From NCBI GenBank assembly GCA_963823655.1, contig CAWGMK010000013.1, forward strand, positions 256,001 to 320,000: 64,000 nucleotides of DNA. Reading direction: 5' to 3'. Each line of letters opens with the position of its first letter. Position 1 is the stretch's first letter. The translations under genes and the position numbers were made by a program. Shown piece after piece: positions 33,332 through 58,699 of the stretch. The DNA is from an uncultured Bacillota bacterium (GTDB lineage: Bacteria; Bacillota; DTU025; MWDF01). The notes beneath the pieces are model-generated. The model had not been told where the DNA came from. It did not search any database and saw nothing but the letters and a program-made list of their open reading frames with translations.

Positions 33332-33360
33332 GCATGGTATAATATAATATTATGTAAACA
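33332..33360 (+). promoter_or_regulatory. xerD extended -10 promoter (TGGTATAAT) followed by a XerD-arm box TTATGTAAACA
   Basis: TG-G-TATAAT at 33335-33343. The box at 33350-33360 matches the B. subtilis dif XerD arm TTATGTAAACT at 10/11. Confidence 0.6.
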
Positions 33361-33378: not shown

Positions 33379-34284
33379 ATGCTGGAGGAGTTGGAGGACT
33401 ATCTGAATTTCCTTGCAGTGGAAAAGGGCCTTTCGGAGAACACCCTTTACTCCTATGCGAGGGACCTCATGGACTTTGAGCAGTTCCTCGCCGCGAAGTG
33501 CGGCGCTAAGTCCTGCTCTGCGGCCATGGTGCTGACTGCGGACGGTTCCACCGTGTCGGCTTTCGTGTCGCATTTGTCCGTAGCGGGGCTTTCTGCAGCC
33601 AGCGCATCCCGCAAGCTTACTACTATTAGGGGCCTCTATAAATACCTGCTGCGGCAGGGCGCCATGAAATCGGACCCGGCATCCAGCGTAGAGTCGATCA
33701 AGCAGCACAGGACGCTGCCCAAATGCCTTAGCATGGATGAGACCAAGTCGCTCATTGATTCTCTCAAGAAGAACAGCCCGAGAGAGCTGAGGGACCTGGC
33801 GATGCTTGAGGTGCTTTACGGCTGCGGGCTCAGGGTAAGCGAACTCGTCAACCTCAAGGTAGGCGATGTGAATACCGAGCACGGCTATGTAAGGTGCATC
33901 GGCAAGGGCTCAAAGGAAAGGATAGTCCCTTTAGGCTCGTTCGCGGCCAAGGCAGTTGACGATTATATGTCATACGGAAGGTCCGCAATTTGCAATATGA
34001 AGCCGAGCTCCTGGCTGTTCGTCACATCCGACGCCAGCCCGATGAGCAGGCAGGCTTTCTGGAAGAACCTGAAGAAAAGGTGCTTGGAGGCAGGCATCAG
34101 CTCAGAGGTTAGCCCCCACACCCTCAGGCACTCTTTTGCAACTCACCTTTTGGAAAATGGTGCGGATCTAAGATCGGTGCAGGAGATGCTAGGACATGCC
34201 GACATTGGCACGACGCAGATATATACTCATCTAACGAAGGCAAAGCTCAGGCAGGTATATGATAAGCATCACCCCAGATCGTGA
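33379..34284 (+). CDS. xerD: Tyrosine recombinase XerD
   Basis: GLRVSEL, GKGSKER, SRQ, HTLRHSFATHLL, LGH..TTQIY and HPR motifs; nudF-xerD-deoB synteny. Confidence 0.95.
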   Translation: MLEELEDYLNFLAVEKGLSENTLYSYARDLMDFEQFLAAKCGAKSCSAAMVLTADGSTVSAFVSHLSVAGLSAASASRKLTTIRGLYKYLLRQGAMKSDPASSVESIKQHRTLPKCLSMDETKSLIDSLKKNSPRELRDLAMLEVLYGCGLRVSELVNLKVGDVNTEHGYVRCIGKGSKERIVPLGSFAAKAVDDYMSYGRSAICNMKPSSWLFVTSDASPMSRQAFWKNLKKRCLEAGISSEVSPHTLRHSFATHLLENGADLRSVQEMLGHADIGTTQIYTHLTKAKLRQVYDKHHPRS

Positions 34285-51426: not shown

Positions 51427-52108
51427 ATGCTTCTGGTAGAGTGGAAAGCCTTTCTTGTTGATGCAGGATTAATACTGTTGTCCGTGGTCCTGGGCTCCAT
51501 GATCGGTTTCGAGAGGGAGGCACAGGGCAAATCCGCGGGCCTGCGCACTCACGTGCTGGTATGCGTAGGCGCGACGTTGATGTCCATTATATCGATGAGA
51601 GGGCTTCGGCGCCTGGGAGGACGGGCTAAGAGACCCCGGTCGGATGATAGGATATCTAGTCGCGGGCATCGGCTTCCTTGGCGCGGGAACAATACTAAGA
51701 GACGGCTTTAGCATCAAGGGGCTGACAACGGCGGCGAGCCTGTGGGCAACATGCATGGTTGGAATCACCGTAGGATCGGGCCTTGTGCTTTACGCCATCT
51801 TTACGACGGTGATCATCGTCATTATCCTGAGCCAGTTCAGCAAGATAGAGCGTTCAGTCGCAGTGAGGGCGTCTTCGATGCTGAAAATAAGCGCAGTAGA
51901 CCGACCCGGTTTGCTCGGAGATATCGCCGCCCTGTTCGGGCGGCATTCCATAAGCATAAAGAAGAGCGATATCAATACGGACCTCAAGACCGGCTTGGTC
52001 ACCATTGAATTCGAGCTTGAGAAGGTTTCGAAGGAAAGAAGGGTCTGCGATGTCGCATTCGAGCTGAACGATATCGAAGGCATCTGCAAATATGAGGTCA
52101 AGGAATAG
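51427..52108 (+). CDS. MgtC/SapB family protein with C-terminal ACT domain, copy 1 (frameshift near 51602)
   Basis: IGFERE, AGLRTH, GIGFLGAG, GLTTAASLW and DRPGLL motifs. Confidence 0.9.
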
Positions 52109-52187
52109 CTGCAAAACTTGATTTGCAGCAGTTTGGCCGTGCGGCAACTACTCTTTTTGATTGGGTTTGATTAGAAAGCGAGGGCGA

Positions 52188-52869
52188 ATGTTGTTGATCG
52201 ACTGGAGATTTCTCATTAGTCGATATGGGGCTTATCGTCCTTTCGTTGATCCTGGGCTCAGGCATAGGATACGAGAGGGAGGCCCATGGCAAGTCGGCTG
52301 GCCTTCGGACGCATGCCTTGGTCAGCGTGGGAGCAACATTGCTAACGATAGTATCAATGAGGGGATTCGGCGCCTGGGAGGGCGGCCTCAGGGATCCGGT
52401 GAGGATAGTCGGTCAGATTGTAGCCGGCATTGGTTTCCTTTGCGCAGGCACGATACTCCGAGACGGACTTAGCGTTAAGGGCCTTACAACGGCAGCCAGC
52501 CTTTGGACTACATGCATGATAGGCATTGTTGTGGGTACCGGGCTTATACAATACGGGATTCTTGGCGCTGTTATTGTTGTTCTGGTGCTTGGCCAGTTCA
52601 GCAAGATCGAATCAAGGATTTCGGTAAGAAGCATCTCCATGCTCAAGGTCGTAGCGACCGACAGGCCGGGCCTTCTGGGAGATATCGGACTTATACTAGG
52701 CAAATACCAAATTGGAATCAGCAAAAGCGAAATTAACTCGGATGTAAATTCCGGCCTTGTAAGCATAGATATGGAGCTGCGGAAACCTTCCAAGGACGTA
52801 AGCTTGTCGACGGCTGCGCTTGAGCTGAATTCTGTTCGCGGCATCCGCGATTATGAGATACATGAATAG
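52188..52869 (+). CDS. MgtC/SapB family protein with C-terminal ACT domain, copy 2 (frameshift near 52210)
   Basis: Same motifs as copy 1. The N-terminus MLLIDWR aligns with copy 1 MLLVEWK. Confidence 0.9.
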
Positions 52870-52876
52870 GAGCAAT

Positions 52877-53654
52877 ATGAAAGTATTAGTATCCAATGAC
52901 GACGGAATCCACGCTGAAGGGCTGGCGTCATTATGCAATTCGCTGAGCTCACTTAACCTTGAAGTATATGTGTGTGCGCCGGACAGGGAAAGAAGCGCTG
53001 CCAGCCATGCGCTGACGATGTACACTCCCTTGAGGTGCCATAGCTGTTGATTCCCCCGGCTTCCAGGCGAAGAAAGCATGGACTGCCGACGGAACGCCCG
53101 CAGATTGCGTCAAAATCGCCCTGGAACTGCTTATGAAGGATGACCTTCCCGATTTTGTAGTATCAGGTATCAACCGCGGGCCGAACCTCGGAAACGACAT
53201 CCTTTACTCCGGAACGGTAGCTGCGGCAGCTGAAGGCTGCTTCTTCGGCATTCCTTCAATGGCAGTGTCATGCACAGCCAAAAGGAAGCCCGACTATAAC
53301 GCCGCTTCGGCCTTCATAACCGACCACTTTCTAGGGCTTATGGAGAACGGCTTGCCTCAGGGCACAATGCTAAACGTGAACGTACCGCCGGAGGCCAAGA
53401 CCGAGGCGGGGAAGGCAGTCCTAAGGTTCACAAAAGCAGGGACCATGAAATATGCAGACATCTTTGAAGTCAGGAATGATCCGAGAGGTAAGCAATACCT
53501 ATGGATGTCCGGCGAGCCTGTTGAGGTGGATACCGACCCAACCTTCGATACGGTAACGATAAGGAATGGGTATGTATCAGTAACACCAGTAAGGTTTGAA
53601 CTCACTGATGATGAGTATTTAAATAGCCTGAGGGACAACAATCGAGAGAAGTAA
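52877..53654 (+). CDS. surE: 5'/3'-nucleotidase SurE (frameshift near 53045)
   Basis: SNDDG, GTPADCV, SGINRGPN and YSGTV motifs. Confidence 0.95.
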
Positions 53655-53681
53655 GTTTACGTACATATTATTATGTCAACT
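53654..53681 (+). other. Second dif-like 11-6-11 site (AGTTTACGTAC-ATATTA-TTATGTCAACT)
   Basis: Right arm is XerD-arm-like. The reverse complement of the left arm, GTACGTAAACT, also resembles the XerD arm. Confidence 0.5.
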
Positions 53682-53698
53682 TGGCGGTTATAGAATAA

Positions 53699-53774
53699 TG
53701 GCAGGGGAGACAGGACTTGAACCCGCAACCCTCGGTTTTGGAGACCGATGCTCTGCCAGTTGAGCTACTCCCCT
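53699..53774 (-). tRNA. tRNA-Trp(CCA)
   Basis: Cloverleaf AGGGGAG...CTCCCCTGCCA with anticodon loop CT-CCA-AA. Its own promoter TTGACA-17-TAGAAT lies at 53830-53802. Confidence 0.97.
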
Positions 53775-53867
53775 GCGATGGCATATTTGCTTGCAATATG
53801 TATTCTACCTAGTATAAGTCTTAGTGTCAATTCGATAACTCATTATAAGTGCATGGAGGTAGACAAA

Positions 53868-54446
53868 ATGGATGAGTTCAAGGTACCGGTAGGAATATCC
53901 AACAGGCATCTTCACCTGAGCGAGGCGGATCTTCATACTCTTTTCGGAGATGGATCTTGCTTGACCGTAAAGAAGCCGCTTTCACAGAAGGGGCAATACG
54001 CCTGTGAGGAGCTAGTTACTATAGTAGGACCCAAGGGAAGCCTCAGCAATGTTAGGGTTCTCGGACCTACAAGGAAGCAGACCCAGGTGGAAGTCTCCAA
54101 TACAGACGCAAGAGGGCTGGGCCTTGAGCCACCGGTAAGGGACAGCGCAGATCTTGCAGGAAGCGCGTCCGTAAAGCTTGTAGGGCCCAAGGGCGAGCTT
54201 ACGTTGCCAGAGGGTTGCATCATTGCCAAGCGCCACATCCATATAAACGACGAAGATGCAGCAAAGCTTGGCTTGAAGGACAGACAGCTAGTTAAGGCAA
54301 AGGTCGCCGGCAACCGTGGGCTGGTCTTTGATGAAGTTCTAATCAGGGTGCATCCGACATTCGTGCTCGAAATGCACTTGGATACGGATGAGGCTAATGC
54401 ATGCTCTTTGAAGAACGGCGAGACAGTCACCCTTATAACAGGCTAA
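53868..54446 (+). CDS. pduL: Phosphate propanoyl/acetyltransferase, PduL family
   Basis: SNRHLHL, RVLGP.R..QVE, RHIH and MHLDTDEANA motifs. No N-terminal encapsulation peptide. Confidence 0.93.
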   Translation: MDEFKVPVGISNRHLHLSEADLHTLFGDGSCLTVKKPLSQKGQYACEELVTIVGPKGSLSNVRVLGPTRKQTQVEVSNTDARGLGLEPPVRDSADLAGSASVKLVGPKGELTLPEGCIIAKRHIHINDEDAAKLGLKDRQLVKAKVAGNRGLVFDEVLIRVHPTFVLEMHLDTDEANACSLKNGETVTLITG

Positions 54447-54466
54447 TCAGGGGTGGCGAGCGTCTT

Positions 54467-54897
54467 GTGTTGCTGGAAGGCCCTAATGTAAAGACCTGGC
54501 TCCATTTCGAAGGCGAAATGGAGTCGGGTTCATCTTCATCGCTAGTCATTGCCATGCTGGGTGGACGCATCGTCCTTGTCTATAATGTGGCAAGAGGCGG
54601 CTGGGAGATACCCGGTGGTAAGCAAGAAGATGGTGAATCGCAGCTGGAATGCGCCCAAAGGGAGCTGCTACGAAGAAACCGGCCTGTTATCAGGTGAAAT
54701 GGTCCTTATATGCAGCTATCTGGTAGAAAAAGACGGCCGCCAGATGAAGGGCAACATCTTCGGATGCGAAATTAGCGGCCTTTGAACCGGTCCCGGACGG
54801 CGCTGAAACATCCGGAGTCGGGCTCTTTAAGGATTGCCCTTCAAAAGTAACCATGGACGATGGTTTCCTCCAATACATTTTCAAGAAGCTCTTATAA
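54467..54897 (+). CDS. NUDIX hydrolase (MutT/YtkD-like), two frameshifts
   Basis: WEIPGGK.E.GES..E.A.RE followed by EETG in the next frame. Confidence 0.75.
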
Positions 54898-54915
54898 GAT
54901 ATCAGGGGTGAGATT

Positions 54916-55128
54916 ATGCCAATATTCGAATTTAAGTGTGAGGACTGCTGCAATCAATTCGAGACATTAGCCAAGAAGGACGAACAAGTAAGTTGCCCAA
55001 AATGCCAATCCAAGAACACCAGGAAGCTGCTTTCGAAATTCGGTTTTGCTTCTGGCGCGGGTTTTAGATCATCTGTGGGAAGCGGCGACTGCGGAAGTTG
55101 CAGCAGCACGTCATGCACACCGACTTGA
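54916..55128 (+). CDS. FmdB family zinc-ribbon protein
   Basis: MPIFEFKC..C...FE......CPKC motif and a Cys-rich tail. Confidence 0.9.
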   Translation: MPIFEFKCEDCCNQFETLAKKDEQVSCPKCQSKNTRKLLSKFGFASGAGFRSSVGSGDCGSCSSTSCTPT

Positions 55129-55172
55129 GGACATTCACATTAGGGGCCAGTTTGGCTCCTTCTATATATAAT

Positions 55173-55200
55173 GGTTAACATAATGTGTATTATGCGACAT
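55173..55200 (-). other. Chromosome dimer resolution site dif
   Basis: Minus strand reads ATGTCGCATAA-TACACA-TTATGTTAACC, versus E. coli dif GGTGCGCATAA-TGTATA-TTATGTTAAAT. Intergenic and located at the gene-orientation switch. Confidence 0.88.
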
Positions 55201-55273
55201 CATATATAAGAGTAAAGGGCCCTCTCCCGGGGCCCCGATTATTTGCAGAACGTCATGCACATGACTTCGTGGA

Positions 55274-55640
55274 TCAAGACGTTACTATCTTCTTTCGTAA
55301 GCTATTGTCACTGGCCAGTACGGCATCCCTTACCGGTATCGACAATCTCATACCCGGGAATATCATTCCGTCCTGAATCCCGTTCTTTTTAATTGTCTCT
55401 TCTACGATACCTCTAATATCTTCGGTATCCCCGTATATGGATCTTACGCATTCCCAAACGGTATCTCCGGCCTTCACTTCAACGCTGTAGTAATCAAGCA
55501 TCTCCCCATCATTGCGCGCCAGAGGAGCTGAATACCAGACCAAGCATCAATGTCACAAGCGATATAGCTGTTATGAATATTACCAGCTTATCGGGGCTGT
55601 ACCTCTTGATCTTCGCGGTATAGTGGACGACTCCTAACAT
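55274..55640 (-). CDS. YneA-like LysM-domain SOS cell-division inhibitor (frameshift near 55520)
   Basis: ATG at 55640 after GGAGG, a TM helix, then the LysM motif VKAGDTVW...N.I....I.PG..L.IP. Divergent from lexA. Confidence 0.8.
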
Positions 55641-55658
55641 GTTGCCGCACCTCCTACC

Positions 55659-55670
55659 GAACATATGTTC
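55659..55670. promoter_or_regulatory. LexA (Cheo) box GAAC-ATAT-GTTC
   Basis: Perfect Firmicutes GAAC-N4-GTTC just downstream of the minus-strand TATAAT (55678-55683) of the yneA-like gene. Confidence 0.9.
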
Positions 55671-55716
55671 TGTTTTGATTATAGAGCCACTTTCGGTCAG
55701 GCAGTCAAGAGGAATC

Positions 55717-55755
55717 GAACAAATGTTTGTATCATATGCATTGTTCTGATATATT
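55717..55755 (+). promoter_or_regulatory. lexA promoter (TTGTAT-17-TATATT) overlapped by LexA box GAAC-AAAT-GTTT
   Basis: The box at 55717-55728 overlaps the -35 hexamer at 55727-55732. Confidence 0.8.
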
Positions 55756-55783
55756 AGGATTATAAAAACAAAGGGGTGTTAAA

Positions 55784-56399
55784 ATGCAGAGCCTTAACGA
55801 TAGAGAAGCAAGGATACTTAACTTCATATGCAATGAGGCTTCCGAAAAGGGCTTCCCCCCATCCGTAAGGGAGATTTGCGCAGCTGTAGGTCTGAAGTCC
55901 ACCTCGACTGTACATGGCTATCTAAATGCCCTTGAGAAGAAGGGCTTTATAAAGAGGGATTTGACCAAGCCTCGGGCTATAGATGTCCTTCAGAATTCCA
56001 GCGATTCGCAGAATATGAGAAGGATAGCGAAAAGCGTCCCGCTCATCGGCGCCGTTACTGCGGGCCTCCCTATCCTGGCGACGGAGAACATTACCGACTA
56101 TATTCCCCTGCCTAAGGAATGGGTCGGTGAGGACAAGGTCTTCATGTTGAAGTGTTAAAGGCGACAGCATGATCAATGCAGGCATATTCGATTCCGATAT
56201 GCTGGTGGTTAGAAGCCAGTCGGACGCCGAGAACGGCGACATCGTCGTGGCTATGATTGAAGACGAAGCAACGGTCAAACGCATGTACAAATCCAAAGGG
56301 CGCATCGAACTGCATCCGGAAAACCCATCCTATAGCGTGATAATCTCGGATTCAACCCAAGTATTGGGCAAGGTAATAGGCCTTATGAGGAAAATATAA
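55784..56399 (+). CDS. lexA: SOS repressor LexA (frameshift near 56155)
   Basis: PPSVREIC, STSTVHGYL, VTAGLP (Ala-Gly cleavage site), GDSM and ATVKR motifs. Confidence 0.96.
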
Positions 56400-56400
56400 G

Positions 56401-56426
56401 GCCCCGCCGTTAAGCGGGGCAATTTT
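56401..56426. terminator. Hairpin terminator between convergent genes
   Basis: GCCCCGC-CGTTAA-GCGGGGC followed by AATTTT. Confidence 0.7.
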
Positions 56427-56458
56427 CAATATTCAATTGGATACGCCCATCTTCGCTC

Positions 56459-56824
56459 CTACATCTTCGTTCCTATCGATGAAGTATCCTTCATATCCTT
56501 CTTCTCAACGCCACACGCCTTAAAGAAAATCTCCAAGGCCTGTTTGGCACCCCGATCCTCGGGGCTGCTCATCTGCGGCTTGTCATACAGTGTCGGCAGT
56601 TGCTGGTACCATTGCTTGGCAAGCAGGATCGCTCCTTCGACTCCTTCTCCACCTACGACGCCGATAAGTCGGTCATAAGTGTTCCTTCTTGCTGTCGCTT
56701 GCTTCGCCCAGAAATCGGGGTTCTCAGTCAACTGCGCAGCGAGGAAATCTTGTTTCGCGATGGCCCTGAAGCTTTCGAGCCCCCGCAGAATATCCTCGCT
56801 CGATATGAGGTTCATGGCACTCAC
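56459..56824 (-). CDS. Hypothetical protein (~120 aa)
   Basis: Clean ORF with a SD (AAGGAAAGGTG) and an upstream TATAAT; no recognisable motif. Confidence 0.65.
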   Translation of the reverse strand: MSAMNLISSEDILRGLESFRAIAKQDFLAAQLTENPDFWAKQATARRNTYDRLIGVVGGEGVEGAILLAKQWYQQLPTLYDKPQMSSPEDRGAKQALEIFFKACGVEKKDMKDTSSIGTKM

Positions 56825-56872
56825 ACCTTTCCTTGTTAATGAACCGTCCCTACTTAATTATACGATATTATC

Positions 56873-57506
56873 TCAAGATTCCTCACTAAGTAAAGACAAT
56901 ACTTTCTTCATGTCCGCCCATACATCCGCCTTCTTGGAAGGATCCCTCAGCAAGGCCGCCGGATGGAAGGTCGGCAGATAAGTCATTTCGTTATGGATCA
57001 GCACCTTCCCCCTCGCTTTGGTGATGCCGTCCTTGGTATCGGGGAATATGGACTTATAAGCAGTGGAACCGAGCAACACAATGACCTTCGGCTTTATTAT
57101 ATCAATCTGCCTGTTCAGATATCCTATACAGCTTTCGACCTCATCCTTCTCGGGCAAACGGTTCGCAGGGGGCCTGCACTTCACGATGTTGCCGATGTAT
57201 ACCTCTTCCCTGCTCATTCCCATAGCGGCGATGATATTGTCCAGCAGGTGGCCCGCAGCACCGATGAATGGCCTTCCCTTTGCGTCCTCGTCCGCCCCCG
57301 GCCCCTCGCCTATGAACATCAGCTTCGCTTCGATGTTGCCCTCTCCAGGCACAGTATTTGTCCTGGTTAAATGCAATCTGCATCTCGTGCACTTGGCCAC
57401 TTCGGCCTCTATAGCCCGCCATAAGAAGCTTCCTGTCGTAGATCTTAGTCACGATTTCGTCGGATTTCTCCTGCTCAGAGCCGAAAAGGCTAAACTGGAC
57501 ATCCAA
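56873..57506 (-). CDS. Family 4 uracil-DNA glycosylase ([4Fe-4S]) (frameshift near 57415)
   Basis: CTRC, GEGPG..ED..G.PF.G, NIVKCRPP and TFHPA motifs. The N-terminus MDVQFSLF... is in the adjacent frame. Confidence 0.92.
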
Positions 57507-57587
57507 TTGGCAGCACGCCCTTCCATGTAGAAAGTAATTGCAGATGAAAAGCTTCTGTTATATTATATTTATTGTCTGATTAGCAGT

Positions 57588-57664
57588 CGAGGTGTAGCGC
57601 AGTTTGGTAGCGCGCTTGGTTCGGGACCAAGAGGCCCCGGGTTCAAGTCCCGGCACCTCGACCA
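57588..57664 (+). tRNA. tRNA-Pro(CGG)
   Basis: CGAGGTG...CACCTCGACCA with anticodon loop TT-CGG-GA. Promoter TTGCAG-17-TATTAT at 57538-57566. Confidence 0.97.
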
Positions 57665-57670
57665 ATTTTT

Positions 57671-57754
57671 GCGAGAGTGGCGGAACGGCAGACGCACCAG
57701 ACTTAGGATCTGGCGGGGTGACTCGTGCGGGTTCAAGTCCCGCCTCTCGCACCA
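57671..57754 (+). tRNA. tRNA-Leu(TAG)
   Basis: GCGAGAG...CTCTCGCACCA with anticodon loop CT-TAG-GA and a long variable arm. Confidence 0.97.
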
Positions 57755-57778
57755 ATTCCCTTAATCATAAGGATTCTT

Positions 57779-57805
57779 GCGGCCATGGGCCGCTTTTTCT
57801 TTTTT
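57779..57805 (+). terminator. Terminator after the tRNA pair
   Basis: GCGGCC-ATG-GGCCGC followed by a T-rich tail. Confidence 0.75.
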
Positions 57806-57811
57806 ACCCCG

Positions 57812-58699
57812 CTACTCCTGCCGATTTCCATAGATTTGCTGATTTATCTCATCCAGCGACTCCATGGTGGCCTTTAGCCCTTTCTCTATGATCTCCTCCG
57901 CCTTGAAGAACTCGTGAGCCAGATAGCCCTCAATGGCTGGCCTGATTTTAACATCGGCATGATGGACGACCATCTTCACAAGCCTCTCCTGGAATATGTC
58001 AAAGCTGTTTAGCAGCACTGTTATCATATTGGGTGCGCCTTTGATGTTCGTTTTCGACACATCCGGAACAACGTCAACTCCTATAACAATATCGATGCCG
58101 ATCGCAGTCAAGTAGTCGCTTGGCACCGGATTTGACACGGCGCCATCAACGTAGTATTCCTCCTCAATCATATGAGGCACGAACACGCCTGGAATTGAAA
58201 TCGACGCTCTGACGGCGCTCCAGACGGCTCCTGTGTCGAATGCTTTCTCTTCGCCTGTCTTAATATTGGTTGATATTGCGATGAAAGGCATCTTCGTCTC
58301 GGCGAAAGTGCAATTATTCGTCAGCTTCATTATTAGCTTGTTGATCCTGCTGCCCCTCATCAAGCCAGACCTGCCCGTAATGCCAAGATCCAGGTACTTG
58401 ATTATGTCGGCCTGCCCTATAGATACCGCAAGCTCCGCCATCTCTCTCGTAGAAGTGCCACAAGCGTACGCTCCGCCCACAAGAGCGCCTGCGCTGCAGC
58501 CGACTATTGCGTCAATCGGGATATTGTTGTCCTCCAGGACCTTAAGAACGCCGATATGTGCAAGGCCCCTCGCAGCGCCCGAACCCAGCGCCAAACCTAC
58601 TGTCTTTCTGCCCAGGCCCTGCTTCAGAACGGTAATCCTTCCTCTTGGCTCCTTCAGGAATTCTTCGTCAGCCAGCACCCTGGCAATGCTGTCTAGCAT
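57812..58699 (-). CDS. Patatin-like phospholipase (RssA/NTE family)
   Basis: GSGAARG, GCSAG, AVRAS..PG and DGA motifs. Confidence 0.92.
   Translation of the reverse strand: MLDSIARVLADEEFLKEPRGRITVLKQGLGRKTVGLALGSGAARGLAHIGVLKVLEDNNIPIDAIVGCSAGALVGGAYACGTSTREMAELAVSIGQADIIKYLDLGITGRSGLMRGSRINKLIMKLTNNCTFAETKMPFIAISTNIKTGEEKAFDTGAVWSAVRASISIPGVFVPHMIEEEYYVDGAVSNPVPSDYLTAIGIDIVIGVDVVPDVSKTNIKGAPNMITVLLNSFDIFQERLVKMVVHHADVKIRPAIEGYLAHEFFKAEEIIEKGLKATMESLDEINQQIYGNRQE

Follow-up and report, generated by a model that had tools for sequence, protein, structure and literature searches.

Does the spacer between the last genes of the left and right replichores, near position 55,190 of this DNA, hold the chromosomal dif site of the genome? 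The window, by which we mean the whole analysed stretch of 64,000 nt, belongs to contig C13 (530,911 bp) of the 13-contig assembly of an uncultured Bacillota bacterium. A preliminary description had reported a 28-bp site with an 11-6-11 layout in this spacer and had read it as the chromosomal dif at the terminus. Our analysis supports that reading. Uniqueness, consensus score, conservation, and coincidence with the GC skew maximum make 55173-55200 (minus strand) very probably the chromosomal dif of this genome, of the classical XerCD type, and the reading survived a check of skew, a search for a better dif elsewhere, and a check for misassembly.

Sequence of the candidate dif and its match to published sites

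The site reads ATGTCGCATAA-TACACA-TTATGTTAACC on the minus strand, exactly as previously described, and GGTTAACATAA TGTGTA TTATGCGACAT on the plus strand. The arm ATGTCGCATAA (55190-55200, minus strand), which XerC would bind judging from its alignment to published dif sites, is followed by the central 6-bp strand-exchange region TACACA (55184-55189, minus strand; TGTGTA on the plus strand) and the putative XerD-binding arm TTATGTTAACC (55173-55183, minus strand). The inner core is palindromic (CATAA-N6-TTATG), and the arms have partial dyad symmetry around the 6-bp centre. The range originally given for the feature, 55160-55212, does contain the 28-mer but also takes in an outer AT-rich repeat. 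That longer, imperfect inverted repeat is present here (55163-55173 and 55198-55208, 11 nt, 91% complementary) but absent from five other species of the genus, and we therefore treat it as incidental AT-rich flank.

Counted against the E. coli dif in Table S1 of Kono et al. (2011, BMC Genomics 12:19), identity was 7/11 in the XerC arm and 9/11 in the XerD arm, in agreement with the earlier counts, and the centre differed (TGTATA in E. coli, TACACA here). Counted on published strings, identity to the B. subtilis dif was 6/11 in the XerC arm and 9/11 in the XerD arm. The earlier remark that the XerC arm is more like that of E. coli than that of B. subtilis is thus numerically true (7/11 vs 6/11) but trivial, since arms of this kind are found across many phyla, which makes the "E. 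coli-like" arm the common type and B. subtilis the outlier. The XerC-arm type ending in TCGCATAA also occurs among Firmicutes in the accessible part of Table S1 of Kono et al. (2011). Genomes of many phyla contain the arm pair GTCGCATAA ... TTATGTWA, in at least 120 stretches, and among 80 listed loci the full 28-mers were identical to the site at 18-25 of 28 positions, with up to 25/28 in distant phyla.

In the part of Table S1 of Kono et al. (2011) available for comparison, the predicted dif of Heliobacterium modesticaldum matched the site at 10/11 positions in the XerC arm and 9/11 in the XerD arm, that of Desulfotomaculum reducens at 10/11 in the XerD arm, and that of Lactobacillus casei at 9/11 in the XerC arm. 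The Clostridia rows mostly have T at position five of the centre (TAAGTA, TAGATA, TACATA), unlike the TACACA found here, and the present uncultured lineage is absent from the same accessible rows. By the same criteria, the available portion of that study gives dif predictions for 578 of 592 genomes. The candidate falls inside the published dif range, and prediction of dif from such criteria is already established.

From the Clostridia rows in the accessible part of Table S1 (Kono et al. 2011) we derived a consensus with 26 scored positions and scanned the genome with it (~4.6 million positions). The candidate scored 22/26 and was the sole outlier: no position scored 20 or 21, and the runner-up score of 19/26 was reached at five positions, one of them the same site on the other strand. 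The profile scan that had been suggested as a check therefore returned the site as the best single match genome-wide, with no better candidate elsewhere. When five published dif 28-mers were compared singly by Hamming distance, four had the site as their top match, with margins of only 1-2 positions, and we preferred the consensus scan because its separation was better. The 28-mer had no second copy in the genome at up to eight mismatches, and of the four places with the inner core CATAA-N6-TTATG, only the one at 55173-55200 extends into an XerD-type arm. The short generic core pattern ATAA-N6-TTATGTWAA is not decisive alone, as its reversed control also matches this genome once; it matched 51 of 61 genomes of the phylum. 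Its reversed control matched many low-GC genomes too, so we did not take the phylum-wide matches as evidence for dif.

Conservation, neighbourhood, and assembly of the locus

At up to three mismatches, the site was present in exactly one copy in 17 of 31 sampled genomes (this genome and each of 16 matching relatives), and the reversed control gave 0 matches. Across the order it was found at this threshold in 19 of 21 genomes; the two with no match were G005 (77% complete) and G015 (97% complete). The XerC arm was invariant in the six genus genomes that hold the site and read ACGTCGCATAA in the sister families. Most changes within the order fell in the centre (TGTGTA, TGTGCA, TGTACA, or TATATA on the plus strand), and a few fell at outer positions of the XerD arm. 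Judged from these alignments, near-constant arms around a variable centre are the pattern expected of a Xer core. The site forms a conserved island of ~26 nt whose flanks are unalignable between families, and within the genus the right flank diverges immediately past it.

A looser 27-nt pattern identified an extra copy in the sister-family relative G009, on a plasmid-like contig of 60.8 kb (G009:C90, locus L041, positions 2250-2276), with the centre TGACTA. This copy is located between convergent genes, adjoins HTH_36 Rep-like and ParA genes, and is not syntenic with the dif locus of the chromosome. It resembles a site for resolving plasmid dimers, one that would borrow the host XerCD.

Two terminator-like hairpins enclose the dif candidate. 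The left one (55142-55160, plus strand) follows the fmdB-like gene, with a predicted fold of -12.6 kcal/mol for a 48-nt stretch, and its stem is kept by differing sequences in six species of the genus (by eye). The right one follows the LysM (yneA-like) gene and precedes a T-rich tail; it is located at 55216-55236 on the minus strand (55214-55234 in the preliminary description). Both hairpins are real, their fold z-scores are modest (-1.8 left, -1.3 right), and they look like the intrinsic terminators of the two convergent genes, fmdB-like and LysM. A site between two such hairpins could instead be a palindromic operator that is conserved, or could belong to a bidirectional terminator, in either case unrelated to Xer, with its skew position a by-product of the convergent genes, and AT-rich palindromes are indeed common in such spacers. 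We find this explanation hardly credible. The site matches published dif far better than does anything else in the genome, it is identical at 25/28 positions to sites of unrelated phyla, and its constant arms and variable centre follow the pattern of a recombination core. Furthermore, the adjacent hairpins change freely and the site does not, and an Rfam scan of 53400-56000 returned tRNA only, with no Rfam family at the site.

The flanking genes were identical on both sides of the candidate dif in all six independently assembled relatives compared, which represent two families. One side carries the fmdB-like gene and pduL, and the other carries LysM, lexA, a 121-aa protein of unknown function, uracil-DNA glycosylase, and patatin. 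Since these genes are the same, so is the orientation of the site relative to its neighbours in all six. The last gene of the left replichore encodes an FmdB-family zinc-ribbon protein (54916-55128, plus strand; TIGR02605, 52.3 bits, cut-off 31.3). The last of the right replichore is the LysM/yneA-like gene (55274-55664, minus strand), for which the best NCBIfam match, to YneA, fell short of the cut-off of 60 with 33.4 bits.

The dif candidate thus adjoins the yneA-like LysM gene, from which lexA diverges (55274-56399), a neighbourhood kept in 6/6 relatives from two families. This divergent pair has the layout that B. subtilis shows for its SOS division inhibitor. The 121-aa protein (56459-56824, minus strand) had no NCBIfam match and adjoins lexA and the uracil-DNA glycosylase gene in 6/6 relatives, with 54-87% identity.

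Contigs from public sequencing runs were compared over the 2-kb stretch 54200-56200; none of the runs contained as much as half of the sampled words, and those with shares below 0.2 were left unused. One contig of 946 nt, from a run that may be the source sample, bridges 54975-55921. Another of 141 nt, from runs that may include the source sample, covers 55067-55207 with zero differing letters. Some public contigs track the window to ~55202-55212 and then switch to the right flank of other species of the genus. No joints were reported in the public-run contigs over 54200-56200, a stretch that no single listed contig spans in full. A misassembly junction at the site, which had been named as a way for the dif reading to fail, is rejected by the synteny in 6/6 relatives together with the bridging 946-nt contig.

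The same public contigs were one letter short relative to the window at 54669, 54779, 55301, 55522, 55698, and 56152. The LysM gene lies in two frames (55274-55543 and 55509-55664), and with the missing letter at 55522 it is apparently split by a 1-nt error. Positions of missing letters coincide with frame splits, so the frameshifts in NUDIX, LysM, and lexA are probably assembly errors. The reading frame of surE (52853-53654) is also split.

The replication terminus and a second dif-like site

We analysed GC skew contig by contig, on contigs >20 kb of the 13-contig assembly. Skew was about +0.09 on the left side of the candidate dif and -0.10 on its right side, over more than 100 kb in each direction. 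The cumulative skew of C13 had its maximum at C13:311219 (window position 55219), 19 nt from the site, confirming the change from G-rich to C-rich sequence that had been noticed by eye. This is the sole switch from plus to minus skew in the genome. The sole switch in the opposite direction is at C7:101379, 1.5 kb from dnaA (C7:102846-104207). The candidate dif was at the plus-to-minus switch in 7/7 genomes examined (this genome and six relatives), and in one of these relatives (G012) the skew peak and the site were ~600 nt apart, which makes the closeness seen here (19 nt) partly a matter of luck. Similarly small distances between dif and skew shift are given for Desulfitobacterium and Symbiobacterium in the accessible part of Table S1 of Kono et al. 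(2011). On the right replichore, outside the window, ~40 kb (C13:440001-480000) had skew near zero (0.000, -0.012) between neighbours near -0.10, and may be an island or an inversion.

Gene orientation switched at the same place, bearing out the replichore strand bias in the preliminary description. Counting stop-to-stop frames of 150 codons or more, we found 40 on the plus and two on the minus strand to the left of the candidate within the window, and zero and seven, respectively, to its right; for the whole of C13 the plus:minus counts were 178:58 left of it and 41:150 right of it. Three tRNA genes are exceptions that had been missed: tRNA-Trp (53699-53774) runs on the minus strand, and tRNA-Pro and tRNA-Leu (57588-57754) run on the plus strand. 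The genome contains PolC, which fits a strong leading-strand gene bias.

A degenerate dif-like site, AGTTTACGTAC ATATTA TTATGTCAACT, was found at 53654-53681 (plus strand), inverted relative to the dif candidate, between the surE stop and the 3' end of tRNA-Trp, such that the XerD-like arms of both sites face inward. It scored 19/26 against the consensus and has lost the inner ATAA on one arm. Chance occurrence was first suggested by 0 matches at up to three mismatches in 30 relatives, and this was overturned when homologues differing by more than three letters were found. All five genus members with enough flank had the homologous site 1503-1519 nt from dif, with scores of 19, 23, 22, 22, and 21 of 26, the copy in the present genome being the most degenerate of the genus. 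The best of them, in G001 (G001:C24:122114-122141), scored 23/26, equal to the primary site of G001 by our own count, and has homologues in G002, G003, and G004. No such site was found within 9-21 kb of dif in four sister-family genomes, and between species the second site was far more variable than the primary one. The second site may belong to the Xer system. Its centre differs from that of the primary site, and recombination between the two is consequently unlikely.

The near-constant spacing in 5/5 genus members and the score of the G001 copy, which equals that of its primary site, could mean that the second site is the functional dimer-resolution site, or that both are used and 55173-55200 is secondary or accessory. 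We regard this as very unlikely: in the present genome the second site is degenerate (19/26, with one inner ATAA lost), it varies much more between species, it is missing from the surroundings of dif in the four sister-family genomes that keep the primary site almost unchanged, and the skew maximum is at the primary site.

Two Xer-like sites 1.5 kb apart, together with a relative that has dif-like arms on a plasmid-like contig, also bring to mind a mobile element that exploits Xer (IMEX) or a dif module, with the site as its attachment scar or junction in place of a native dif. The Acinetobacter dif modules described in the available parts of two reports (PMC6449649, PMC12907356) resemble the present arrangement in being blocks bounded by inverted sites (XerC/D and XerD/C in the modules, Xer-like sites with 1.5 kb between them here); unlike those modules, the block in this genome holds conserved chromosomal-type genes, is fixed in 5/5 species without signs of mobility, and has sites with differing centres. 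The block contains tRNA-Trp, pduL, NUDIX, and fmdB, and pduL and fmdB were on that side in both genus relatives tested. A mobile origin of 55173-55200 seems extremely improbable to us, given that the two sites are inverted and not direct and have different centres, that the genes of the block are of chromosomal type, and that pduL and fmdB keep the same side in 6/6 relatives, four of which revealed no second site. No integrase, phage, or plasmid gene was found among the frames of 52000-58000 (three of which were scanned against the family library), and instead of the variable presence of accessory or mobile cargo we found a near-constant distance of 1503-1519 nt in 5/5 species. A native chromosomal dif at 55173-55200 is the reading that we carry forward.

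Xer and FtsK genes, a proposed pathway, and a motif upstream of xerD

Genes for a Xer recombination machinery are present in the genome. xerD is located in the window at 33379-34284 (plus strand; TIGR02225, 358 bits, cut-off 329.6), and a paralogue that scores best as XerC lies just upstream of the window at C13:254540-255439, directly after trmFO. The XerC-like protein scored 330.3 bits, 5 bits short of the XerC equivalog cut-off of 335.15, and passed the NF001399 tyrosine recombinase subfamily model. Both translations contain the catalytic motifs R, K, HxxR, H, and Y (by eye). No Xer-type matches beyond these two genes were reported in the genome, which also has one gene with an FtsK gamma domain (PF09397, 96.1 bits, in a 793-aa open frame, at C13:419683-419862). 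We searched for polar KOPS/SRS motifs in the contig and in 2.25 Mb assigned to leading strands, using guide motifs of known systems. No clearly polar KOPS-like word was found there; the most skewed 8-mers were G-rich, with 75-85% of occurrences on the leading strand (GGGNAGGG at 307:109 and GAGAAGGG at 149:53), a bias that base skew and gene orientation could explain.

The system resembles the E. coli dif/XerC-XerD/FtsK system in its 28-bp 11-6-11 site, its location at the skew switch, and its set of xerD, xerC-like, and gamma-domain ftsK genes. Likenesses to the B. subtilis system (CodV = XerC, RipX = XerD) include a PolC host, strong leading-strand bias, the XerD arm at 9/11, and the xerC-like gene directly downstream of trmFO, where codV also lies in B. 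subtilis. Differences from B. subtilis are the XerC arm at 6/11, a single gamma-domain translocase, and the RTP gene, for which no PF02334 match was present in this 97%-complete genome in a search whose control finds B. subtilis. The B. subtilis translocases are SpoIIIE and SftA.

By analogy with E. coli and B. subtilis, we infer a binding pattern, an order of strand exchange, and a dependence on FtsK at this site. XerC would sit on ATGTCGCATAA and XerD on TTATGTTAACC, flanking the 6-bp centre TACACA. When sister chromosomes are dimeric after replication, the septal translocase FtsK would pair the two dif copies and activate XerD, which would exchange the first pair of strands where the centre begins. 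The Holliday junction would then be resolved by XerC, yielding two monomers.

A further XerD-arm-like motif, TTATGTAAACA, is located at 33350-33360, 19 nt before the start codon of xerD (33379). It was present upstream of xerD in 4/4 genus genomes inspected (this genome, G001, G003, and G004) and absent there in 2/2 sister-family genomes (G009 and G012), and it had a full 11-6-11 appearance in G001 and G003 only. The G001 genome had exactly three matches to ATAA-N6-TTATGTWAA: dif, the second site, and the region upstream of xerD. The motif may be an XerD operator or merely the -10/+1 part of the xerD promoter. One tentative extension is that XerD in this genus has three targets, namely dif, the inverted second site, and the motif upstream of xerD, which could serve self-repression or tuning, a decoy beside dif, or both. 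We rate this arrangement as improbable, and to our knowledge such a regulatory layer is undescribed for Xer systems.

As a dif, 55173-55200 is an ordinary and well-known feature that leaves knowledge of dimer resolution unchanged. Its value is that it gives the replication map of an uncultured genome of the PolC type (Bacillota-like) an anchor, placing the terminus at C13:311 kb and the origin next to dnaA on C7. Such a placement helps to order contigs, to annotate genes with regard to replichore, and to estimate growth rates from read depth. The catalogue of Xer sites also gains one well-supported dif variant, with the centre TACACA, that is nearly invariant across an order. If XerD binds the second site and the motif upstream of xerD, this would point to autoregulation or decoy binding.
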